Assembly: GCA_964590575.1 (NCBI GenBank)
Contig: CAZPWM010000066.1
Span: forward strand, 1 to 17,479
Direction: 5' to 3'
Source: an uncultured archaeon
Lineage (GTDB): Archaea; Asgardarchaeota; Thorarchaeia; Thorarchaeales; Thorarchaeaceae
DNA length: 17,479 bases
The notes beneath the pieces are model-generated. The model saw nothing but the letters and a program-made list of their open reading frames with translations. It was not told the DNA's origin and made no database searches. How positions within the stretch are numbered: the stretch's first letter is position 1; the number at the start of each line of letters is the position of its first letter. The position numbers were made by a program, and so were the translations under genes. Below are positions 312-16,775 of this stretch, one piece after another.

Positions 312-992
312 TTGACAGACAAGGAAAAGATGCTTGAATTATTGGATGAGTTCAAGAACTCAATTGTCAAATTGATGGATGAAAGGGAGAAACTCGACAG
401 TGAAGCTGAGGAACTCCGAACTGCAAGAAGAGAAGCTGAAGAAAAAGTATGGGTTGTAGACGAACAGGTCAAAGAGCTTACAGCCAAACTCGAGAAAGCT
501 GAAACAGCCAGAGACAAGGTAAAAGCAGATCTATCTGTAGCTAAGGAAGAAGTGTCGAGTTTGAGTGCTAAAGCTCAGGAGGCTGAAGCTGGTAAAAGCG
601 AGGCACAGGAAGCTCTACAACGAGAGCGTGACGAACTGCGAAGAGAGATGGATGAGATCAACGAACAACTTGGAAGGGTCTCTGAACTCTATCGTGAAGC
701 ATCTGCAGAAAAGGAAGCTCTGCAGGAGAAAGTTGACGTCAGTGATCTGCTTGCAATCTACATCACTCTGATTGAAACTGTCTTCTACGGTAAACCGCAT
801 GCTAGGATTCTATATACACTCCATGATGTGAAAACTGCAATAACTAGGAAGAATATTGCATCTAGCACTGGAATCCAACCAGCAGTAGTCCTCAAAGCAG
901 TGCATGATTTGAAAGCTGCTGATCTTGTTTCATATGATGATGAATCAGAAGAAGTCATGCTCACCAAGGACGTTCTTATCAAATCCCGATAA
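312..992 (+). CDS. Long coiled-coil protein with C-terminal winged helix-turn-helix
   Basis: Residues ~1-140 are E/K/A-rich with heptad character. The C-terminus PHARILYTLH...ITRKNIASSTGIQPAVVLKAVHDLKAADLVSYD fits a wHTH pattern. TTG start with SD. Confidence 0.8.
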   Translation: MTDKEKMLELLDEFKNSIVKLMDEREKLDSEAEELRTARREAEEKVWVVDEQVKELTAKLEKAETARDKVKADLSVAKEEVSSLSAKAQEAEAGKSEAQEALQRERDELRREMDEINEQLGRVSELYREASAEKEALQEKVDVSDLLAIYITLIETVFYGKPHARILYTLHDVKTAITRKNIASSTGIQPAVVLKAVHDLKAADLVSYDDESEEVMLTKDVLIKSR

Positions 993-1016
993 CTCAGCTA
1001 AAGAGAGAGAAAGCTA

Positions 1017-2021
1017 TTGTCCAGAAAACCAGACATTGGGTCGGCATTACAAAAACATGTGAGAAAATACACGCTAAACGATAAGCTCCGCTCAATAACT
1101 GAGCTCCTAGGAGAAGACGCTCAAAATGTCATTGACTGGGCCTACGATGAAGCAAAGCGTTTGATTGCGGAAAACCCACGCGAAAAAGAGTCTGATTTAG
1201 GAAGGATTGTCTACGAGCTTATTGGGAGTGAAGCTGCAATAATTCTAGTCAAGGAAAATCATGCAAAAGGAAGAATGACTACAAAGAATGAAGTCAAATC
1301 TAGAACTGGGTTAAGGGAGGAAATGCCGGTTTTATATCGAGATGCAGGATTGAGGCATCCTCAAGAGGCGAGGAATCTCAGACACAACCTATTCCATGAA
1401 GCATTTCATGCACTCATCATGCATCTATTCCCAGATGTCAATACAAGTGTCCCGTCCACTGGAGAAGGACTAACACCTGATCTTATGGTAGAACATAAGG
1501 ATCCGGATTGGTTGATATCTGTAGAATACAAAGGGTATCGATCTATTACGCTTCTCAGTGAGTCAGAGGTACTGAAAGGAATGCGCTATCAAGCAGCTTA
1601 TGGAACTGCATGGTTGGTAACAACTTCAACAAAGAGCGTCAAGGACATTTATCGAAAAACAGTTCAATCAAAAGAATTGGTTGAAGTTGGTCTTGCTAGA
1701 CTTAAACGAATCTATAAACGTCGGGCATATACCAATGAACAAAGAGAGAATCGAGGAATTGCAAAAAAAGGAATTTCTCATCTTGAGAAGCAAAGCGACC
1801 TTAATATGAAATCCAAGCTCTGGTCAGCAGAGGAACTTTTGGAATCAATGAAGGAAGGAAAACCTGTTAAAGGACTCGTCATCACAACTGGCTTTGAATT
1901 TATTGAGCTACTGAAAAGCGCTGGGCTCTATGAAGAAGCTGACAATGTACTTAGAGTCATGAAACTCCCGACCTCCATACTTCATAGTGATAAAGTGACT
2001 TCAGTCAGATTAATTGAGTGA
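1017..2021 (+). CDS. PD-(D/E)XK restriction-endonuclease-like fold protein
   Basis: Motif TPDLMV...LISVEYKG (PD...ExK), followed by a helix and AWLVTT strand; 334-aa ORF. Confidence 0.7.
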   Translation: MSRKPDIGSALQKHVRKYTLNDKLRSITELLGEDAQNVIDWAYDEAKRLIAENPREKESDLGRIVYELIGSEAAIILVKENHAKGRMTTKNEVKSRTGLREEMPVLYRDAGLRHPQEARNLRHNLFHEAFHALIMHLFPDVNTSVPSTGEGLTPDLMVEHKDPDWLISVEYKGYRSITLLSESEVLKGMRYQAAYGTAWLVTTSTKSVKDIYRKTVQSKELVEVGLARLKRIYKRRAYTNEQRENRGIAKKGISHLEKQSDLNMKSKLWSAEELLESMKEGKPVKGLVITTGFEFIELLKSAGLYEEADNVLRVMKLPTSILHSDKVTSVRLIE

Positions 2022-2140: not shown

Positions 2141-2533
2141 TTGGAAGGCCAAAACGTCATGAAACTACAGGAGACCCTTAGTAATCTCCTAAAGGAACTC
2201 TCAAATAAGTCGCCAATTCTTGGTGCAGCTATTTTTTCAATTGAAGGATTACCATTTGTAAGTAGATTTCATGGTGGGACTGAGGAGGCATCAATAGCCG
2301 CCATTGTCGCAGCTATTCACGCAGCAGGAGACCAAACAGTAAAAGAGCTTAGACAGGGAGAACTCAAATCTATCATCATTCAGGGAGATCTAGGAGCGAC
2401 GGTCGTAATCGCAATATCAACTGATTACCTTCTCACAGTTACAGCCCCTGAAAACGCCAAACTTGGCCTTATCTTCAGCGATGCTAAGAAGACAGCTAGA
2501 GAGGCAGGAAAAATACTTTATCGGGCAATCTGA
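2141..2533 (+). CDS. Roadblock/LC7 (MglB/LAMTOR-like) domain protein
   Basis: ILGAAIFSIEGLPF...IAAIVAAI...ELRQGELKSIIIQGDLG...AKLGLI is the classic roadblock pattern. GGGAG precedes TTG2141; alternative start ATG2159. Confidence 0.9.
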   Translation: MEGQNVMKLQETLSNLLKELSNKSPILGAAIFSIEGLPFVSRFHGGTEEASIAAIVAAIHAAGDQTVKELRQGELKSIIIQGDLGATVVIAISTDYLLTVTAPENAKLGLIFSDAKKTAREAGKILYRAI

Positions 2534-2538
2534 AAACA

Positions 2539-3369
2539 ATGGCAATTATTAGTGAATATCCTTTTAGATACCACCCTTGTTACTCAAACAATCGTAGTTT
2601 ACTCTGGCATAGAATTCATCTCCCTGTAGCACGAGTTTGCAATGTTAAATGCTCATTCTGTTCACATTCAGTTGGATCTTCATGTCACACATCAAAACCA
2701 GGAGTTTCTAGACAGGTAATGACACCAGAGGATGCAGTGGATAGAACAATAATTGAAATCGAGAAGAACCCAAATCTCAGGATTGTCGCAATTTCAGGGC
2801 CTGGTGAACCTTTAGCAAACCCAGAAACATTCGAAACACTAGAATTAATCCGAAGGAAATTCAAAGATGTCGCAATCTGTTTAAGCACCAATGGAACGTT
2901 GCTTGAAGACAATATCATGTGGTTGAGAAAAACACATGTTGAAACAATTACGGTCTCTATGAGTACTGCAAACATCTCTACAGCTTCAGAGATCTATGAA
3001 TGGGCTAGATTTGAAAATAGTGTTCTCAAGAACGAAGAGATGGGTTCAAGAATTGTGGATTCACAACTAAGAGGAATCTCCAAGGCATCTAAAGCGGGTA
3101 TTCATGTTAAGGTCAACTCGATTCTAATACCAGAGGTTAACATGCAGGATATCATACCATTAGCGCATGAGATTCAAAAAGCTGGAGCGGCACTGCAGAA
3201 CATTGTGCCGCTTGTGCCCTATGATAGGTACGCATCTCTTAGAGCACCAACCATCCAAGAACTATCTGATATTCGCAAAAAGGCATCAACCTTCATGAAG
3301 CAGTTTCTACACTGCAAACAGTGCAGAAGTGATGTTGTAGGAATCCCTGGATATGATAGAATTCTTTAG
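2539..3369 (+). CDS. Stand-alone NifB-like radical SAM protein (divergent; no NifX-like domain)
   Basis: HPC, RIHLPVA, CNVKCSFC (CX3CX2C), SGPGEPLAN, CLSTNG, VKVNSILIP and C-terminal HCKQCRSDVVG all correspond to NifB-family motifs. Confidence 0.85.
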   Translation: MAIISEYPFRYHPCYSNNRSLLWHRIHLPVARVCNVKCSFCSHSVGSSCHTSKPGVSRQVMTPEDAVDRTIIEIEKNPNLRIVAISGPGEPLANPETFETLELIRRKFKDVAICLSTNGTLLEDNIMWLRKTHVETITVSMSTANISTASEIYEWARFENSVLKNEEMGSRIVDSQLRGISKASKAGIHVKVNSILIPEVNMQDIIPLAHEIQKAGAALQNIVPLVPYDRYASLRAPTIQELSDIRKKASTFMKQFLHCKQCRSDVVGIPGYDRIL

Positions 3370-4193
3370 TAGAATTTCTTAACAGAAAGGCACCCGACTT
3401 CAACCAATTTATTGATCAGGAACCAAAGAGCCCGAGGATCATAAGGAAGAGATTCTGCAACATCCTTGACTTTCATCGTGCCATCAAATTTCTCAAGGAT
3501 GTCCTCCAATGGTCTTCCATATTGATTCTTCAATTTGCTGAGAGTTATCTCTGGACAATCAGATCTAACAAGTACATCCTCATCAGTGATACGTGTCTTG
3601 AAATCTATCCAGTGATACTTGTCAAGTATCGAAATCAGAGCTAGAGCCTTATCATCGGTGAAACCAATAAGGTCCATGATTTCTGCAACAGTCCGCTTTC
3701 CATTGATGAAGGATTCGAGCTGTTCTAATGCATGGTCAACAGCACCCACCCTGAACGGAATTCGAACGCCCGTCTTCTTCTGGATAGGTACAAGATCCAA
3801 ATCTATTGAGGAGAATGGAAACTCCTTCACGATGTCTAGTGCAAACTCTCTGAAACGACGAATATCACCTTCAAAGTGTCTCAGCTTATCGCCATGCTCA
3901 CTCTCAACTTGGTCGAGAATACGTCTTAGTTTTTCACGATATGGTGCTTCATCTGGCACTGGATCAACAACAAGAAGAACTAGTACTGTTTCACCAACCT
4001 CGATGATTATGTCATAAGCAGCCTTCCTGATGGTCCTTATTGGAGTCTTAGCAAAGATGATGACTGCAGTAACAAAACCAGCAATCAAATCAGGATCAAC
4101 TGTGAGTTCAGCATACGGAATGTTCAGTACAGATTCTCCACCCTCCATTCGGATAAGGGAAATATATCTTACTTTGGAAACATCCAATGCCAT
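3366..4193 (-). CDS. Longin domain + two winged-helix domains (NPRL2/NPR2-like architecture), paralog A
   Basis: N-terminal VRYISLIRMEGG...DPDLIAGFVTAV longin-type signature; two wHTH units (FINGKRTVAEI; FDGTMKVKDV). SD GGAGGT at 4201-4206 on the minus strand. Confidence 0.75.
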   Translation of the reverse strand: MALDVSKVRYISLIRMEGGESVLNIPYAELTVDPDLIAGFVTAVIIFAKTPIRTIRKAAYDIIIEVGETVLVLLVVDPVPDEAPYREKLRRILDQVESEHGDKLRHFEGDIRRFREFALDIVKEFPFSSIDLDLVPIQKKTGVRIPFRVGAVDHALEQLESFINGKRTVAEIMDLIGFTDDKALALISILDKYHWIDFKTRITDEDVLVRSDCPEITLSKLKNQYGRPLEDILEKFDGTMKVKDVAESLPYDPRALWFLINKLVEVGCLSVKKFY

Positions 4194-4196
4194 TCA

Positions 4197-5072
4197 TCAG
4201 ACCTCCTTGTTCCCGTCAGTCGCTGGGGGTGTGTCGACGTAACCCAACACACCAGCATCAATAAGGCGATTAGCCACAGTTTTGATTACCTCTATATTAA
4301 ATGGAAGAAGTTCGCAAATCTTTGACAATGTTCTTGTACCATCACACTGGTCAACAAGTTTGGTCAGTTGATCTCCATAAACACCAACAAGAAACTTTGG
4401 AGGATCGATGATTTTTGTTAAGATTGAGCTATCTTCAAGACGTCTGGTCAATGTTATCCATTTGTATTTGTCTAACATCGACATGATTGCCATTATTTCA
4501 GAGTCTTCAAACTCAGACTGCTGCATAATCTCTTCAATAGTACGTTTTCCATTGATATATCCAAGAACAATCTGCAGTTTCTCATCAGTCCCACCGACAC
4601 TCCAAGGAATATTGGCGTGATGGTCAGGATTTGCTTCGGATTTTGAAACTAATCTAGGTATCATTTTAAGATCGAAAGTTCTGTATGGATACACTTGAAG
4701 AATATCCAATGCATACTCACGGAATGGCCGAATATCGCCCTTCCAAGCTGTAAGCTGTTGTTCATAACTTTTCTCAAATTTCTCAACAATCTTAATCAGG
4801 TTATTTCGATATGGTTCGTCATTTTCAACCTTGTCAACGATGAGTAGACCTACTACATGCGCACCTTCTTCAATAACTACAACATATCCCTCTTTTACGA
4901 ATGTCTTTAGCTGTCTGTTCTCGAATATAATCACAGCAAGAACGAAACTAGCTACTAAATCAGGGTCAACTGACATAGTTCTATAGGTTATACCAATGAT
5001 AGGTTCTCCCCCTTCTTTTCGAACAAGAGAGAGATAGCGGACTTCCGCTGCCAAATCAGCTGTTTCGTTCAC
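4197..5072 (-). CDS. Longin domain + two winged-helix domains (NPRL2/NPR2-like architecture), paralog B
   Basis: Colinear with paralog A (VRYLSLVRKEGG, VDPDLVASFVLAV, PYR, GDIRPFRE, YINGKRTIEEI, LDKYKWI, CDGTRTLSKI). GTG start; ends 3 nt before paralog A. Confidence 0.75.
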   Translation of the reverse strand: MNETADLAAEVRYLSLVRKEGGEPIIGITYRTMSVDPDLVASFVLAVIIFENRQLKTFVKEGYVVVIEEGAHVVGLLIVDKVENDEPYRNNLIKIVEKFEKSYEQQLTAWKGDIRPFREYALDILQVYPYRTFDLKMIPRLVSKSEANPDHHANIPWSVGGTDEKLQIVLGYINGKRTIEEIMQQSEFEDSEIMAIMSMLDKYKWITLTRRLEDSSILTKIIDPPKFLVGVYGDQLTKLVDQCDGTRTLSKICELLPFNIEVIKTVANRLIDAGVLGYVDTPPATDGNKEV

Positions 5073-5107: not shown

Positions 5108-6001
5108 TTAGAAGAAATCCATTATGCCACTCTGTGTTACCATGGTAATATCTCCATCACTATCTAAGCTATATCCAATAACCTGTTTCAGATTAGCTAC
5201 GGTATAGGCGCTTCCAATTCTAGTGACAAGGAGGGAACCTTTCATTCCAACAACGTCCCCCACCAGTGGTCTTTGGTCTATTGGATCAGACCTCTTCCGC
5301 CAGGGGGTTGGTTTAACATCTAAAACTGGAAGCGAATAGTGCTTGGACAGATCTTCTAGTGCAACATGGGTTCCAACCTCAATACTCTCGATTCCAACAA
5401 TGAAATCATTAACGATTGACTCCGCAACCCCAATCTCTAGAGATTCCTGAAGACTCTTTATCTTCCGCTCTCCTCGAACTACCTTAGTAATGTTGGATTT
5501 TTTGCCAAGTCGATCCTCTAACCGTCTAGCCTTTCGTCCCCCAGTAATAATCTGAACTATACCACCAAAGTCTGCGCCTTGTTCAATCCACCGAAGACGG
5601 ACCCTATTCTTGGATGAAACTCCAATTTTCAACGTTGAATCATTGAAGACAACCACATACAATGCATAGTCTGACATATCACATTGTATCTTTCTTGCTT
5701 CAGTCGCTCCGCAGATTCGACCATCGCAACGAATGCACGGATCATAATAATCCACAGCAGAACATGGACCACAACGCGTTCCTTGACCAAGAATAGTAGT
5801 ATCCTCAGGGCATTTGACCAACTTGCCTGTCGAGTCAATATTCCCAACACAGCGTTTTGGTCCACTAAAGAACCAATTTAGATGTTTACCCGGAGTTATT
5901 GGCAAGAAGTCGACATTATCAAATCCGTCCCTCCAGACACGAAGCCCAGACTCATAGGTTTCATCTTTGGAAATTCTCCACGCAACATCCACAACCTGCA
6001 A
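5108..6001 (-). CDS. DUF2797-family Cys-rich protein with C-terminal PIP box
   Basis: Cys cluster (RCVG, KCP, CGPC, CIRC, ICG, QCD) followed by YVV...LKIGVS...RWIEQGA, as recalled for DUF2797; ends QSGIMDFF. Confidence 0.75.
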   Translation of the reverse strand: MQVVDVAWRISKDETYESGLRVWRDGFDNVDFLPITPGKHLNWFFSGPKRCVGNIDSTGKLVKCPEDTTILGQGTRCGPCSAVDYYDPCIRCDGRICGATEARKIQCDMSDYALYVVVFNDSTLKIGVSSKNRVRLRWIEQGADFGGIVQIITGGRKARRLEDRLGKKSNITKVVRGERKIKSLQESLEIGVAESIVNDFIVGIESIEVGTHVALEDLSKHYSLPVLDVKPTPWRKRSDPIDQRPLVGDVVGMKGSLLVTRIGSAYTVANLKQVIGYSLDSDGDITMVTQSGIMDFF

Positions 6002-6011
6002 CTTTTTGACC

Positions 6012-7058
6012 TCAAAAACGTTTGAATTGTCCCTTACCTCGAATCATCCATTGAACTCCAGCAATGTTCAAATCATTCTGGCATTGTGGGCATCGACCAT
6101 CCTTGTTTAGGTTATTCATATCGAGATAGACTGAATATCGTTCAATTGCTTTAAAGCCGCACTTTGGGCAGTAAGTGTTCTCATAGTCATGACCAGCAAT
6201 ATTACCTGAATAGACATAGACCAGACCCGCCTTTTTTGCAGCAGCAATATGAGTTTCAAGAGTTTTTGCAGATGTACGTGGTAGATGCGTCATCTTGTAT
6301 GCGGGAGCAAACGCAGTAAGATGAAACGGTGTTTGTTCTCCAAGATTCTCAACAACCCATTCTGCCAAAATGCGTGAGTCCTCTATAGAGTCCCCAACCT
6401 CAGGTATGATGAGATTTGTGATCTCGATGAATATACCCTTTTCTTTCATCATGAGCATCGCGTCAAATATTGGCTCAACTTTTGGAACAGACATCAACTC
6501 TTTGTAGAACTTCTTATTTGCACTTCCCTTGAAGTTGACAGAAGCTGCATCAAGATAAGGAGCAATGTAGTCAATTGCTTCCTGAGTCATATATCCATTC
6601 GTTACGAATGTATTAAACATCCCTTTGTTATGTGCTATCTCCGCTGTGTCGTGTGCCAGTTCCATGAAGATGGTTGGTTCAGTGTATGTATATGTTATTC
6701 CTGAGCAGTCATATTTCTGTGCTAGAATCACAATCTCCTCAGGGTTCAGTTTTTGACCTACAGGCGATTCTCGATGTGCAGAGTGATAGTTTAGACAGAA
6801 TTGACACCGGAAATTACACGATGAAGTACTTATTGAGAACGCGCTACTCCCAGGGGCAAAATGAAACAAAGGCTTCTTTTCAATTGGATCAGGAGCCATC
6901 CCATCAATTAAGCCGTAGACTGTGGAGTAGAGTTTTCCATCCTTTACAGTTCGAACTCGACAGAATCCAGTTTCACCTTCATGTATTACACATCGTCTAG
7001 CGCATAGGTCACAACGAATTCCACTCTTCAGTTTTGTATACAGTGCAGCCTCTCTCAT
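6012..7058 (-). CDS. amrS: AmmeMemoRadiSam system radical SAM enzyme (PflA-like)
   Basis: CDLCARRC...GFCRVR, DPIEKKPLFHF, CNFRCQFCLN, YTYTEPTIF, VTNGY and C-terminal YVYSGN...NTYCPKC...CPQC. The true start is probably ATG7058 (MREAALY) or ATG7070, not 7178, which overlaps the divergent gene. Confidence 0.88.
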   Translation of the reverse strand: MREAALYTKLKSGIRCDLCARRCVIHEGETGFCRVRTVKDGKLYSTVYGLIDGMAPDPIEKKPLFHFAPGSSAFSISTSSCNFRCQFCLNYHSAHRESPVGQKLNPEEIVILAQKYDCSGITYTYTEPTIFMELAHDTAEIAHNKGMFNTFVTNGYMTQEAIDYIAPYLDAASVNFKGSANKKFYKELMSVPKVEPIFDAMLMMKEKGIFIEITNLIIPEVGDSIEDSRILAEWVVENLGEQTPFHLTAFAPAYKMTHLPRTSAKTLETHIAAAKKAGLVYVYSGNIAGHDYENTYCPKCGFKAIERYSVYLDMNNLNKDGRCPQCQNDLNIAGVQWMIRGKGQFKRF

Positions 7059-7165
7059 CTCAAGATGCATGTAAATCGGGTTCTTATGCCTCTTACGGTG
7101 TAGCGGGGCGTGTTTAGTAGTCATTGTTAAAAGGAAAAGTTGCGGATTGGGAAATGGTTTAGCAA

Positions 7166-7612
7166 ATGCCAGTTCCAAAGGAGCTAGAACGGATAGGAGG
7201 TCTATTCAGGCTTGCATCTGAGAGGAATAGGCCGTTTCTTGATCGATGTTCCGAAACAAAATATCTAGCAGTAAGAGATTACAGCAGTGCAACAAGTAAA
7301 GCTTTCGAACTTGCAAGGCAAACTTTGAAGGAAGCTAATTCGGAACTAACCAATCGAGCCGATTGTAAGAAGCTTCTTGGTACCGTGCAAAGAGCTGTAG
7401 AGTCAGGACAGTTGGACACAAGTGTAATCTACGCTCTAGAAAATCTCAGGTCCAAATATCTCGAGAAGGTACTTAGTCCAGCAGTGAAATCATATCTCGA
7501 AGATGATGGACTAAAACTCACTCAGATTGATTTACTCTATAATGACGCCTTAAGAATTGAAGGACTTCTTGAAGTGGTTCAGTTTCTCAAGAAAGTTGAA
7601 CCCGTGATTTAA
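7166..7612 (+). CDS. Hypothetical all-alpha protein
   Basis: 148-aa ATG-started ORF filling the gap between amrS and the convergent 7621 gene; normal composition. Confidence 0.7.
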   Translation: MPVPKELERIGGLFRLASERNRPFLDRCSETKYLAVRDYSSATSKAFELARQTLKEANSELTNRADCKKLLGTVQRAVESGQLDTSVIYALENLRSKYLEKVLSPAVKSYLEDDGLKLTQIDLLYNDALRIEGLLEVVQFLKKVEPVI

Positions 7613-11291: not shown

Positions 11292-12659
11292 CTACTCTTT
11301 TGCAATCAGTGAAACATTCTTGAAGACGATCTCTGGACCAATGACACCTTGAAGATAGTGAGGTGTTTTCGCGATTTCATCCACATTTTCAAGGAGATCA
11401 TACATGTTACCAGCAATCATGAGACCATGTACTGCCCCTACCATCTTTCCATTCTCAATCAAGATGGCTGGATTGCCGACGATACTAAAGTCACCAGATT
11501 CTGGATTGGAGCTGTGTGCACCTTGCACACCAAGGATATAATAGCCATACTCGATTCCAGAGATTATTTCATCGATTTCGCGATTGCCAGGCTCCACAAC
11601 GACGGTACTAGGTGATATGTCCACAAGTCCTTGCCGCATGTTCCGTTTTGCATTCCCTGTGCTCTTGACACCCATCTTATTGGCCCAATATGTGTCCCAA
11701 AGGAATGATCGAAGAACACCATTCTCGATGATTGGAGTGCGTTGCCTAGGGACCCCTTCATCATCAGCCGAGGAGCTTGCAACACCTCTTGGATGAAGTC
11801 CATCATCAGCAATCGTAAACTTCTCAGATGCGATCTTTTCTCCCAATTTATCTCCAATCTTTGATTTACCCCTAGCAACATTGTCACCTCTGATAGACTG
11901 AACCAAAGTGAAATTCATCAACTGACTGTAGGCATTTGGATGCATAATCATGGTATGCTTTCCAGTTTTGCCTTTAGCGGATTTCTTGCAGATTCTAATA
12001 TTGGTTGCAACATCATCCACAGTCCTTGTTATATCGACGTCCATTCCACGCGCTATATCATATGAGAAGATCATTGGAGTCATTCCTGTTTCAGTCGGCG
12101 CAACTCCACCAAGGGCAACAAAGGCAAAAGTTCCTTTGTCAGAGTGGCTCACTCCATTGCTGTTAGCATATGCTGAACTGAATGCTATGGCACCTGAACC
12201 ACCGAATCCCGGAATGAGTCCTGGTTCGGCTTCAGTCACTAGGCCAAGTGTTTTTCCAGTAATGCCAACAATCTCTCCTGCATCAGCATTTACAACAGAG
12301 TCCTGCCAGAGTCCTTCAATGGTTGGATAACTCTCTGGACGTGTTGGAAATCCAGACCAATCGTCATCATCAGTTGTCGCTTTTGCTGCTGAAATTGCCA
12401 ACTCTACGGCCTCTTTGACAGCATCCTTGGAAGGGATGTTTGTGAAAGCGGATCCCATTTTCTTGCCAATGTATAGACGGATAGCAATCTGAGCCAAGTC
12501 CTTTTTACTCACCTGACTAATCTGGCCCATCTCAATGTCGGATTCAGATTCCAACTCGGATTGCGCTAAGGCTTCAATGTGATCAGCACCCTTACTCTTT
12601 CCAGTTTCCACTATGAATTCGCAGAGATCAAGTAATGTCTGTTCCTCAATCATTCTCAT
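11292..12659 (-). CDS. tldE: TldE/PmbA family non-catalytic subunit
   Basis: DDEGVP...IIENGVLRSFL...STGNA and NPESGDFS motifs; no HExxH; directly downstream of tldD with SD GGAG. Confidence 0.88.
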   Translation of the reverse strand: MRMIEEQTLLDLCEFIVETGKSKGADHIEALAQSELESESDIEMGQISQVSKKDLAQIAIRLYIGKKMGSAFTNIPSKDAVKEAVELAISAAKATTDDDDWSGFPTRPESYPTIEGLWQDSVVNADAGEIVGITGKTLGLVTEAEPGLIPGFGGSGAIAFSSAYANSNGVSHSDKGTFAFVALGGVAPTETGMTPMIFSYDIARGMDVDITRTVDDVATNIRICKKSAKGKTGKHTMIMHPNAYSQLMNFTLVQSIRGDNVARGKSKIGDKLGEKIASEKFTIADDGLHPRGVASSSADDEGVPRQRTPIIENGVLRSFLWDTYWANKMGVKSTGNAKRNMRQGLVDISPSTVVVEPGNREIDEIISGIEYGYYILGVQGAHSSNPESGDFSIVGNPAILIENGKMVGAVHGLMIAGNMYDLLENVDEIAKTPHYLQGVIGPEIVFKNVSLIAKE

Positions 12660-12665
12660 ACGCTC

Positions 12666-14054
12666 CTAATTGGCTCCTCCAAATGTTATGCCACCCTCCA
12701 AAAACCGAATATTCGGTCCTCCAGCCGCAACAAATGCTTCCTGACCCTTCCCACATCTTCCTAGTTCGAATGGAAAGTCTTCATTGGCAACTCCTTCAAT
12801 CTTGAAGAGAGAGTCGGTAGCGATACCAGAGATTGAGAGGTCCGTCACTGGCTTGCCAAGTTCACCATTAACAATCTCATAAGCCTCCTGAATGCCAACT
12901 TGGAAAGAGGCATTCATCTGAGCTTGCCCGCCCCGGAAGTCGGCACAGTAGTAACCAAACTCAATGCCCTTGAACATCTCATCAGGGTTATAATCACCAC
13001 GCTCAAATAGCGTGTTTCGCATCCTGATAATTGGTGGATAGAGATAGCTCTCGGCTCTCGCATTCCCAGTCACTCGTTGTCCGATCTTTGCTGCATATTC
13101 TCGGTTAGTGAGAAGCTCAGTCAAAACGGAATCTTTGATAATCTCAACACGTGATGCACGTGATCCTTCATCGTCATACTTTGAAGTTCCAAGATTGCCT
13201 TCATCAACACCATTGTCAGTCATATTGACACCCTCAGAAGCTACAACCTCTCCCACCTTACCATTGAATGAACTCTGAACCGTGAGGTCCGCCTCCGATA
13301 GATGCCCCAAAGCTTCATGAGCAAGGACACCAATCACTCTGGGCCCAAGTACACACGGGAATGATCCGCCCTTTGCTGGTACACCTTCAAGTTGAAGCTT
13401 GACTCGTTTCGCAGCCTCCAGTCCAATAGTTTCAGGGGTTGCGACCTCATCCATGAATTCCCATCCACGGCTAGTAGATGCATCCTCGTAACGAGCAGCA
13501 CTAAGGCGGACACCTTCCTTTCCCGTGACCCAGGGATAGCTCCATACAAGAACGACATCTGTTTGAATCCTAGACCCATCAGATGTCATTAGATATTTCT
13601 TTCCTGAAGCGGTTCGTATCTTCCCTGTGACAGCAGTTATTCGTGAGTCATAGTCTTTGACAGCTTTAGTCATGTCCTGTAGATACTTGATTTTCTCCTC
13701 AATTGGGACATGACGAGGATCTCTCCTTACATCTAGAGTGACGACATCTTCAAACGCCTTGGTTTCTGCTAGTGTAATTGGCTCTCGTCGTGTAGGCGCT
13801 GCTGCTTTTGCCATCGAATAGGCATCCTTGACAGCATTGCTAAGCCCATCAAGATTCCCCGTGCTCACAAATCCCCATGCGCCATCAACTAATACTCTGA
13901 TAGCGACCCCTTGCTCTATTCGCTGAGTCAGCGCGTTTATCCGGCCATCATCCATTTGTATATACTCGATGAAACCAGATTCACCTCTGAGCTCTACGTA
14001 GCTGGCTCCGAGTTCGCGGCCTGTTTCCACAGCTTTCTCCAACATGTCAAACAA
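12666..14054 (-). CDS. tldD: TldD family metalloprotease, catalytic subunit
   Basis: GVAIRVLVDGAWGF, HEALGHLSEAD (HExxGH), YDDEG, TGNARA...PIIRMRNT and C-terminal GRCGKGQ. Start is TTG14054 or ATG14045. Confidence 0.92.
   Translation of the reverse strand: MFDMLEKAVETGRELGASYVELRGESGFIEYIQMDDGRINALTQRIEQGVAIRVLVDGAWGFVSTGNLDGLSNAVKDAYSMAKAAAPTRREPITLAETKAFEDVVTLDVRRDPRHVPIEEKIKYLQDMTKAVKDYDSRITAVTGKIRTASGKKYLMTSDGSRIQTDVVLVWSYPWVTGKEGVRLSAARYEDASTSRGWEFMDEVATPETIGLEAAKRVKLQLEGVPAKGGSFPCVLGPRVIGVLAHEALGHLSEADLTVQSSFNGKVGEVVASEGVNMTDNGVDEGNLGTSKYDDEGSRASRVEIIKDSVLTELLTNREYAAKIGQRVTGNARAESYLYPPIIRMRNTLFERGDYNPDEMFKGIEFGYYCADFRGGQAQMNASFQVGIQEAYEIVNGELGKPVTDLSISGIATDSLFKIEGVANEDFPFELGRCGKGQEAFVAAGGPNIRFLEGGITFGGAN
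13645..13689. repeat. 45-bp perfect inverted repeat, copy 2 (tldD codons KYLQDMTKAVKDYD)
   Basis: gagtcatagtctttgacagctttagtcatgtcctgtagatacttg, the reverse complement of 11130-11174. Confidence 0.97.
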
Positions 14055-15849: not shown

Positions 15850-16317
15850 TTGAGATTACTGTTTGTGCTTGGTTCAGGAGGACACACTACTAGAGGTCTG
15901 ATTCTGAGTAAACAGGTGAAGCATGAGAAATTTTACATAGTGCCATGGGAATCTGAGGTGACCAAGCAGAAAGTCGGAAAGAATTACTTCAGTGTAATCT
16001 CACCCAGATTCAGAGCTAAAGACAGTCGGGTCATGAGTGCTGTGCGAACACTCTTCTTGTTTCTTCACAGTCTATTCATCTTCCTTATTGTTAGACCGGA
16101 TGTTCTCATCAGTACCGGATCTGGACTTACTCTCCCCCCATTTCTTGTTGCTCGAGTTTTTGGAATCAAGACCATCTTCATAGAGAGTCCAAGCCGGGTC
16201 TATAATCCGTCTATTGCTGGTAGACTATTGTTAGGAAAAGTGAATCTCTGGTTGAGTAGTTGGCCAGAACTAGCCAAAAGATATCTAGGTGTTGAATACG
16301 AGGGGGTGATATTCTGA
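15850..16317 (+). CDS. Alg14-like (PssD/Cps14F) N-terminal half of a split GT-B glycosyltransferase
   Basis: VLGSGGHT, RPDVLISTGSG and IFIESPSRV...PSIAGRLL motifs. Confidence 0.88.
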   Translation: MRLLFVLGSGGHTTRGLILSKQVKHEKFYIVPWESEVTKQKVGKNYFSVISPRFRAKDSRVMSAVRTLFLFLHSLFIFLIVRPDVLISTGSGLTLPPFLVARVFGIKTIFIESPSRVYNPSIAGRLLLGKVNLWLSSWPELAKRYLGVEYEGVIF

Positions 16318-16775
16318 TATTTGTGACAGTAGGAACCTCTCTTCCTCATGATGCTCTAATTCAAACAGTCGATGAGATGGTCGGTAATGGGTTAATCGCA
16401 GATGAGGTGATTGCTCAAAGAGGAGAGGGTCACTACATACCAAAGCATATCAAGAGCTTCCGATTCAAGAAGGGACTCGAAGAGTACCTAAGCAAAGCTG
16501 AGATTGTCATTAGCAACTGTGGTGCGGGGACAATCATGGAAAACGTCACTAAAGGGCATCGATTGATAGTGATACAGAATCCGGATATTACAGGTGGACA
16601 TGAGTGGGAACTGGTGACCAAGATGGAGAAAGGCGGGCATCTCATTTGGTGCAGAGACCTTAATTCCTTGAAGACATCAATTGAGAAAGCTAGAAACATG
16701 GAGTTCAAAGCGTTCAAACCCGAACAGTTGAATCTTAAAGTCGTTTTGAACAGATTGGAGAAAATCGATGCATGA
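16314..16775 (+). CDS. Alg13-like (PssE/Cps14G; GT28 C-terminal) half of a split glycosyltransferase
   Basis: IFVTVGT, AQRG, AEIVISNCGAGTIME and H-x-x-EL motifs. Start placed at CTG16314 (see findings); the ORF track gives GTG16323. Confidence 0.85.
   Translation: MIFVTVGTSLPHDALIQTVDEMVGNGLIADEVIAQRGEGHYIPKHIKSFRFKKGLEEYLSKAEIVISNCGAGTIMENVTKGHRLIVIQNPDITGGHEWELVTKMEKGGHLIWCRDLNSLKTSIEKARNMEFKAFKPEQLNLKVVLNRLEKIDA

Follow-up and report, generated by a model that had tools for sequence, protein, structure and literature searches.

GATOR1 is a GTPase-activating protein (GAP) complex that switches off the Rag GTPases in eukaryotic nutrient (mTORC1) signalling. Its paralogous core consists of NPRL2 and NPRL3 (Npr2 and Npr3 in yeast), which form a GAP and use their winged-helix domains for protein contacts. 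Among other regulators of small GTPases, longin heterodimers such as Mon1-Ccz1 function as guanine nucleotide exchange factors (GEFs); GAPs of the MglB type need no arginine finger. On the archaeal side, Liu et al. (bioRxiv 10.1101/2020.10.19.343400, from 2020 and subsequently published in Nature) report an NPRL2-like family "in most Thor MAGs" (metagenome-assembled genomes), which the text passages of that work describe as joining a longin domain to a small NPRL2-type C-terminal domain; a passage of PMC9834061 likewise counts an 'NPRL2-like longin domain' among the eukaryotic signature proteins (ESPs) of Lokiarchaeum. Here we describe two adjacent genes, A and B, whose architecture and distribution fit this family. 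They lie on a Thorarchaeaceae contig of 17,479 nt (CAZPWM010000066.1), and the full 17.5-kb stretch is referred to as the window. The core NPRL2-like resemblance of the family is already published, and in this respect the novelty implied by the initial annotation of this DNA was overstated. What is new here is the conserved, lineage-specific duplication into A and B, the loop motifs specific to each type, the gene context, and the ties, through fusions and operons, to Arf-like GTPases and Roadblock proteins.

Gene A (4197-5072, minus strand; 291 aa, GTG start) and gene B (3366-4193, minus strand; 275 aa, ATG start) are separated by a spacer of 3 nt, itself TGA, that lies between the TGA stop of A and the ATG of B. 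The two products are 38% identical over 273 colinear residues (BLASTP E = 8e-61), a paralogy far beyond chance, and the description of the pair as two colinear paralogues 3 nt apart is thereby borne out. Both display the same architecture, a longin domain followed by two winged helix-turn-helix (wHTH) domains, and both belong to the NPRL2-like family, within which the β1-β2 loop distinguishes an A type ('EGGEP') from a B type ('EGGES'). A search of 5.8 billion proteins recovered 239 homologues of A; among the 120 listed, all are at least 70% identical to A, and the named ones are entered as 'hypothetical protein' of Thorarchaeota, Sifarchaeia or Promethearchaeota archaeon MAGs, which marks the source as an Asgard archaeon. 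The matches in the ESM Atlas were archaeal 'hypothetical protein' clusters alone.

A was modelled with AlphaFold2 from a 24-sequence family alignment (mean predicted local distance difference test [pLDDT] 83.4, predicted template modelling score [pTM] 0.77); the structural model covers A, and the domains of B were placed by full-length alignment to A. According to the model, the N-terminal domain of A (residues about 9-130; 4683-5048, minus strand) is a canonical longin fold, with the order strand-strand-helix-strand-strand-strand-helix predicted for residues 11-108. Residues 9-129 superpose on Sec22b (1ifq_B) with a Z-score of 15.3 and a root-mean-square deviation (rmsd) of 2.3 Å over 119 aligned residues in VIA-align, which also aligned this domain to VAMP7, Ykt6 and Fuzzy. 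A search independent of Foldseek, run against 48,161 representative chains, aligned it to Sec22 (3egd_C) with a Z-score of 14.2. The longin domain is followed by a linker (4599-4682, minus strand) that includes a predicted 'MIPRL' strand (residues 137-141) and, as seen from the model and the A/B alignment, an insertion specific to the A type: residues 141-160 have a lower pLDDT (62-75), B shows a 7-residue gap there, and B carries 'LVPIQ' where A has the 'MIPRL' strand. The first winged helix of A (wHTH1; residues about 159-222; 4407-4598, minus strand), which aligns to human NPRL2 residues about 190-249, is predicted as helices at 161-172, 179-185 and 190-202 with strands at 206-210 and 217-220. 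The second (wHTH2; residues about 223-280; 4233-4406, minus strand) is predicted as helices at 226-242, 249-255 and 260-272 with strands at 244-248 and 276-278, and it matches Pfam HTH_47 with an E-value of 0.0018, under the cut-off. By alignment, the longin domain of B occupies residues about 6-127 (3813-4178, minus strand) and its two winged helices together residues about 149-272 (3378-3749, minus strand). The domain plan first read from the letters of the DNA, namely, a longin-type N-terminus, a short hydrophobic-proline strand and two wHTH units, is thus recovered in the model of A, where both units appear as helix-helix-helix-hairpin structures, and in B through its alignment to A.

The resemblance to NPRL2/NPRL3 emerges from profile and structure comparisons. 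As single sequences, A and B retrieved nothing from the Protein Data Bank (PDB) below E-values of 0.19 and 0.39, respectively (phmmer). The top PDB matches of the family profile are human NPRL2 (HMMER; 6ces_N, E = 1.7e-4; 8fw5_B, E = 1.9e-4); LynD, the family that comes next (E = 0.074), trails by a factor of about 400, and yeast Npr2 has an E-value of 0.1. The HMMER alignment pairs profile positions 120-216 with NPRL2 residues 157-249, that is, the linker strand and wHTH1. It reproduces the alignment to human NPRL2 that the initial annotation had drawn by eye, the quoted stretch running without gaps within NPRL2 157-249. In Foldseek, ranks 1-12 of the search with the A model are all chains of GATOR1 or SEA-complex entries (E = 4.3e-7 to 7.3e-5; 323-368 aligned columns); below rank 12 follow the longin or Roadblock domains of AP sigma, zeta-COP, LAMTOR and MglB. 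Among these chains, 8adl_S is Npr2 according to the profile search, and the other GATOR1/SEA chains are taken as NPRL2 or NPRL3 by chain length. The Foldseek-independent search aligned 8adl_S (Z = 10.5; 242 aligned residues; model residues 11-287) and 8fw5_C, taken as NPRL3 by chain length (Z = 10.3; 247 aligned residues; model residues 10-288). Among the best 50 entries of the 48,161 chains, these two are the only whole-chain matches, and the other listed rows concern mainly the longin domain. The likeness lies both in the domain order, an N-terminal longin followed by winged-helix C-terminal domains, and in the occurrence of two paralogues, which are here encoded side by side.

The pair is a stable feature of the lineage. 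The comparison covered 15 loci, each from a different genome and picked non-randomly for long contigs; 14 come from the family to which the window belongs and 1 from a sister family. In 13 of these loci, an A-type and a B-type gene are adjacent, in the same order and closely spaced. The other two are the locus of genome G387, which carries the B type only, and that of the sister family (genome G311, L046), where a single copy is about 30% identical to both A and B. Each of the 85 further genomes of the family to which the window belongs has a match to the family profile. A quick IQ-TREE tree recovered an A clade and a B clade, each with an SH-aLRT support of 99, and placed both in an unresolved group with the single-copy forms. 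Together with the single copies in other families, the tree indicates that the duplication into A and B took place within this archaeal family, separately from the eukaryotic split into NPRL2 and NPRL3. Each type is further marked in the β1-β2 loop by its own invariant residues, namely, G21, G22, E23 and P24 in all 18 aligned A-type sequences and E17, G18, G19, E20 and S21 in all 14 aligned B-type sequences.

A connection with small GTPases is suggested by relatives elsewhere in the same genome and in other Asgard lineages. Contig C16 of the same genome encodes a 650-aa fusion protein (L003:211-2163) that begins with a longin-like region, continues with a G domain of the Arf/Ras type (Pfam Arf, E = 2.4e-18) and ends in a longin-wHTH-wHTH module with homology to A (E = 2.2e-15). 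This fusion is conserved in Thorarchaeota, with 239 proteins at E-values of 0.001 or less; among the 120 listed, lengths range from 589 to 659 aa, and those with a name are designated Arf-like or GTP-binding proteins. The sister family has the fusion as well, as a 652-aa frame. The AlphaFold2 model of the 650-aa protein (mean pLDDT 54.7; below 50 in residues 1-197 and 280-372) is too poor for inter-domain inference. In genome G005, of another Asgard family, a single-copy homologue of 303 aa sits inside a tightly packed co-directional run (L051:7591-11358) made up, in order, of a 351-aa gene, a 276-aa Arf-like GTPase gene, a 180-aa gene, the homologue and a 157-aa gene. The 351-aa product has weak matches to the family profiles (E = 0.003-0.017), the 180-aa product appears by eye to be a coiled coil, and the 276-aa product carries an Arf-like G domain (Arf, E = 5.8e-16), in front of which a stretch of 118 N-terminal residues shows a weak match to the longin section of the profile (E = 0.0098). 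Thus, the parts that are fused in the 650-aa protein of Thorarchaeota are encoded there by nearby genes, and the run is an unfused counterpart of the fusion. The homologue in a further Asgard family (L052) has a Roadblock/LC7 gene immediately upstream. Through these fusion and operon contexts, the tie of the family to small GTPases is supported indirectly.

Other relatives and candidates from the same genome may be recorded here. The 650-aa fusion itself is annotated only as an 'ADP-ribosylation factor-like protein'. Two further paralogues are a 528-aa protein (L004:1504-3090, contig C56) with two wHTH units by eye and an extra C-terminal region and a 203-aa protein (L005:1471-2082, contig C71) with an apparently single wHTH. 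A 274-aa GTPase on contig C30 was considered as a longin-GTPase of the L051 type and set aside, its N-terminus being disordered and no longin being visible in its sequence. The Gtr1_RagA profile (PF04670) yields 8 matches in the genome, 4 of them over the cut-off and all weak (best 34 bits), and the Escherichia coli and Methanocaldococcus jannaschii controls also match it.

Weighing these observations, we give about even credence to a reading in which A and B provide a dimeric longin platform that would bind a small Ras-superfamily GTPase and control its nucleotide state. A and B are two paralogous Asgard 'NPRL2-like' members, each combining a longin domain with two acidic winged helices. The latter probably bind protein rather than DNA and, like the C-terminal domains of NPRL2/3, would mediate dimerization or contacts with partners. 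The likely client would be one of the Arf-like or Rag-like GTPases of the genome. The pairing of A with B, the binding of a GTPase and the direction of regulation are points that we infer. If the proteins do regulate a GTPase, about one half of the expectation falls on a GAP-like activity without a classical arginine finger, in the style of MglB or GATOR1, about one third on a GEF, and the rest on a scaffold or effector. We take the arginine finger of NPRL2 to lie in the β4-β5 turn; the corresponding turn of A, judged by eye on the model, consists of three residues (70-72) and contains no arginine, in line with the remark of the initial annotation that no equivalent of the NPRL2 finger loop is seen. 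Arginines conserved in both types are (in A/B numbering) R18/R15, R89/R86, R115/R112 and R118/R115, and R89 is nearly invariant over the whole family. The most specific form of the proposal holds that A and B are an operon-encoded heterodimer truly homologous to NPRL2/NPRL3, which arose by a duplication of its own and, with no arginine finger of the classical kind, regulates the longin-fused Arf-like GTPases of Thorarchaeota; we consider this form unlikely.

The preference for protein over DNA as the binding partner derives from the charges of the winged helices. The net charges are -3 for wHTH1 and -2 for wHTH2 of A, and -6 and 0 for the corresponding domains of B; the whole proteins have isoelectric points (pI) of 4.95 and 5.22. 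These acidic or neutral units are unlike typical DNA-binding HTH domains, which argues for protein contacts over DNA contacts. With two wHTH domains per chain, and with some relatives matching HTH_24, TrmB and ArsR/HTH_5 at E-values of 1e-3 to 1e-7, one might instead suppose that A and B are ligand-sensing transcription factors in which the longin domain is the sensor and the winged helices contact DNA. However, the charges just given, as well as the use of the winged helices for protein contacts in NPRL2/3, make this supposition highly improbable.

The proposed GTPase regulator can be set beside several known systems that place longin or Roadblock domains next to small GTPases. One comprises FLCN-FNIP, C9orf72-SMCR8 and the Asgard longins of the FLCN/SMCR8 type (PMC12290439), in which two longin proteins jointly build the catalytic pocket for an Arf or Rag GTPase. 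That work reports a conserved 'GP' motif immediately ahead of strand 2 in FLCN, NPRL2, SMCR8 and C9orf72, which are the catalytic subunits, and not in FNIP2 or NPRL3. At this site, A has an invariant G-E-P and B has G-E-S, a parallel with the catalytic subunits that is suggestive only. The FLCN/SMCR8-type proteins differ in carrying DENN modules and no wHTH pairs, and A has G-x-P rather than GP. A second system is that of MglB/Roadblock proteins and the actinobacterial conservon, in which a Roadblock/longin-type protein (MfpD/CvnB) and a wHTH protein of the DUF742 family (MfpC/CvnC) act on a small GTPase (MfpB/CvnD); MfpC is reported as a GEF (PMC11343762) and MfpD as a GAP (PMC9769811). The wHTH2 of several family members comes near the threshold for DUF742 (PF05331; best 26.6 versus 27 bits, in the L051 homologue), the profile matches 2 of 24 members at E-values of 0.01 or less, neither A nor B matches it at that level, and Roadblock genes neighbour the A/B family. 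Nevertheless, A and B hold both modules in one chain, their N-terminal domain has the longin fold and not the Roadblock topology, and no histidine kinase is encoded nearby. The third comparison is with Mon1-Ccz1 and Fuzzy-Inturned, which are heterodimers of paralogous longin proteins and act as Rab GEFs. The longin matches of highest identity (16%) among the listed VIA-align rows are Fuzzy (Z = 14.0) and Mon1 (Z = 11.4). These proteins, however, are tri-longin and lack wHTH pairs, and by sequence the match falls short of significance (MON1A, E = 1.3).

A number of observations weigh against the reading of A and B as a GATOR1-like dimer that regulates a GTPase, and they concern in turn its homology, its pairing and its genomic setting. 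As to homology, the TM-scores to NPRL2/3 are low (0.31-0.37) and the rmsd is high, 8.7-13 Å, which implies that the domain order agrees with that of NPRL2/3 and that the mutual arrangement of the domains differs. The sequence tie to NPRL2 is confined to the linker and the first wHTH: a profile of the longin domain alone found as its best PDB match an unrelated protein (E = 0.14). In a six-frame search of the genome, Pfam NPR2 (PF06218) and NPR3 (PF03666) had no match on A or B at E-values of 1 or less, so that the Pfam comparison envisaged by the initial annotation came out negative. Pfam HTH_NPRL3 scores 18.7-20.9 bits against a cut-off of 27.2 bits (on A, 18.7 bits, E = 0.0017) and touches 5 of 24 family members at E-values of 0.01 or less. 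A and B are also shorter than NPRL2/NPRL3 (about 280 versus 380-570 aa), and a search of the genome, which is 91.45% complete, for a homologue of the partner DEPDC5/Iml1 found none (Pfam IML1, PF12257; E-values of 1 or less). Accordingly, the relation to NPRL2/3 put forward by the initial annotation stands on the profile match, the Foldseek ranks and the independent search, and does not extend to the longin domain by sequence or to the Pfam families: A and B look like NPRL2/3 and may be distant homologues, and we do not assign them to the NPR2 or NPR3 family.

The missing NPRL2 signal of the longin-only profile and the missing NPR2 and NPR3 matches suit an alternative in which the resemblance to NPRL2/3 arose by independent assembly of common longin and wHTH modules, A and B being general signalling adaptors about whose function the GATOR1 analogy would say nothing. 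The longin domain is indeed promiscuous. In the 60 distant matches scanned among 150 listed, its partners in the chain are Arf GTPase, V4R, MFS transporter, KaiC, PCI/UFL1-like, PKD and HTH domains, and it looks like a signalling module of high mobility. Individual cases from public genomes and metagenomes, with longin joined to V4R, MFS, a KaiC-like ATPase, a PCI/UFL1-like wHTH or PKD, include P0160, P0179, P0191, P0194 and P0238 among others. The second wHTH of several members, moreover, is equally weakly similar to HTH_47, DUF742, PqqD and TrmB. Such an assembly would not readily account for an NPRL2 match that spans both the linker strand and wHTH1, which follow the longin domain in the same order, and that ranks far above other wHTH proteins of the PDB, nor for the whole-chain matches of the structural search, which among its best 50 entries were Npr2 and the chain taken as NPRL3 only. 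We therefore regard independent assembly as quite unlikely.

As to pairing, genus g15, to which G387 belongs, has the B type only in all 3 genomes, which are 96-99% complete, and in five genomes that represent five other Asgard families the full-length homologue occurs once per genome, with no tandem partner. These single-copy and B-only genomes imply that an A-B heterodimer is not required in those lineages. Along with the single copy in the sister family (L046), they favour a view in which the family and its GTPase-related role are as proposed and A and B do not pair, acting instead as homodimers or monomers, with different clients, as subfunctionalized duplicates. Asgard Roadblock/longin domains have been solved as homodimers, as stated in the titles of PDB entries 8yqg, 9jue and 9jq8, and the Asgard Roadblock protein Thor-RB is described as a homodimer in PMC10933270. 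On the other side stand the adjacency, order and close spacing of A and B, which are kept in 13 of the 15 loci, and the invariant loops specific to each type, which are the pattern expected of two non-equivalent subunits, like NPRL2 and NPRL3. A complex prediction of A with B gave no answer (score 0.01 against a mark of 0.32) and weighs neither for nor against binding. On balance, unpaired action of A and B seems to us rather unlikely.

As to genomic setting, Pfam detects no GTPase gene in the 17.5-kb window, and the immediate co-directional neighbours of the pair point to no GTPase pathway. The idea that the pair might regulate a small GTPase finds its support, which is indirect, in the fusion and in the Arf-like and Roadblock gene contexts of other lineages. 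The neighbours in question lie upstream of A. A gene for a Cys-rich DUF2797 protein (5108-6001, minus strand; Pfam DUF2797, E = 2e-12) starts the series 35 nt upstream of A, with which it probably shares a transcription unit, and in 13 of the 15 loci it is likewise a neighbour of the A/B homologue. At 10 nt from it is a radical S-adenosylmethionine (SAM) gene of the AmmeMemoRadiSam-system type (6012-7178, minus strand; TIGR04337, E = 4.7e-89, 298.7 bits versus a 220-bit cut-off), which is present in 15 of 15 loci. The order radical SAM-DUF2797-A/B is maintained in 13 of the 15, the sister family included.

This co-directional arrangement, with its short gaps of 10 and 35 nt, invites another interpretation: the wHTH units might be PqqD-type peptide binders, similar to the recognition elements (RREs) of ribosomally synthesized and post-translationally modified peptide (RiPP) systems, by which A and B would present a substrate to the upstream radical SAM and DUF2797 proteins. 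Weak matches point the same way, both to PqqD (TIGR03859, E = 9.4e-4) and to LynD, TruD and MusD, which bear RREs (E = 0.07-0.8). Yet all such matches are well below the cut-offs (TIGR03859 scores 19 versus 46 bits on A and has none on B), Pfam PqqD matches 1 of 24 family members, and neither a radical SAM nor a DUF2797 gene was found near the homologue in five loci from five other Asgard families. A gene for a precursor peptide was not noticed, and both the longin domain and the GTPase fusions would be left unexplained, making a role in peptide modification very improbable.

On the other side of the pair, a convergent unit on the plus strand runs toward B. It includes a Roadblock/LC7 gene (2141-2533, plus strand; Pfam Robl_LC7, E = 2.2e-11), the product of which matches solved Asgard Roadblock chains (7f8m_A, 2.8e-12; 9jue_D, 1.3e-10). 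This gene keeps its place in the convergent unit in all 15 loci and is a possible functional associate of A and B. Next to it, a NifB-like radical SAM gene (2539-3369, plus strand; TIGR01290, E = 9.7e-64, which stays under the cut-off) runs convergently toward B, and the 3' ends of both frames share 4 nt (3366-3369). The Roadblock gene is preceded by a 226-aa gene and a 334-aa gene (together 312-2021, plus strand; the latter 1017-2021), both of which are found in all 15 fetched loci. The 226-aa product shows coiled-coil (SMC-like) matches and weak wHTH matches. The 334-aa product was examined as a hidden GTPase and rejected: it belongs to no Pfam or NCBIfam family and gives weak pentatricopeptide repeat (PPR)-like PDB matches only (E = 1.6e-3).

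Farther along the window are a PmbA/TldD metallopeptidase gene pair (11292-14054, minus strand) and two adjacent genes (15850-16775, plus strand) matching Alg14 (E = 3.2e-15) and Glyco_tran_28_C (E = 1.3e-10), which presumably resemble the split Alg13/Alg14-type UDP-GlcNAc transferase of eukaryote-like N-glycosylation.

The tandem A/B pair, its radical SAM/DUF2797 context and the GTPase-fused paralogue are absent from the text passages of Liu et al., of which Figure 5c and the supplements may show some. A literature search for a tandem pair or heterodimer of archaeal NPRL2-like proteins turned up no paper on such proteins beyond Liu et al. and PMC9834061, and no tandem pair in their text passages, a result on which the same figure and supplements may bear. 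The gain is modest because the family resemblance had already been published (Liu et al. 2020). The origin of the GATOR1 subunits is nevertheless an open question in eukaryogenesis, and this locus offers a compact NPRL2/3-like pair in a close prokaryotic relative of eukaryotes. With both A and B under 300 aa and encoded side by side, and with natural GTPase fusions in the same genome, the archaeal proteins should be easier to express and test than GATOR1. If A and B were indeed a heterodimer homologous to NPRL2/NPRL3, a GATOR1-like longin-wHTH regulator of GTPases would predate eukaryotes, and the step from homodimer to heterodimer would have evolved twice.

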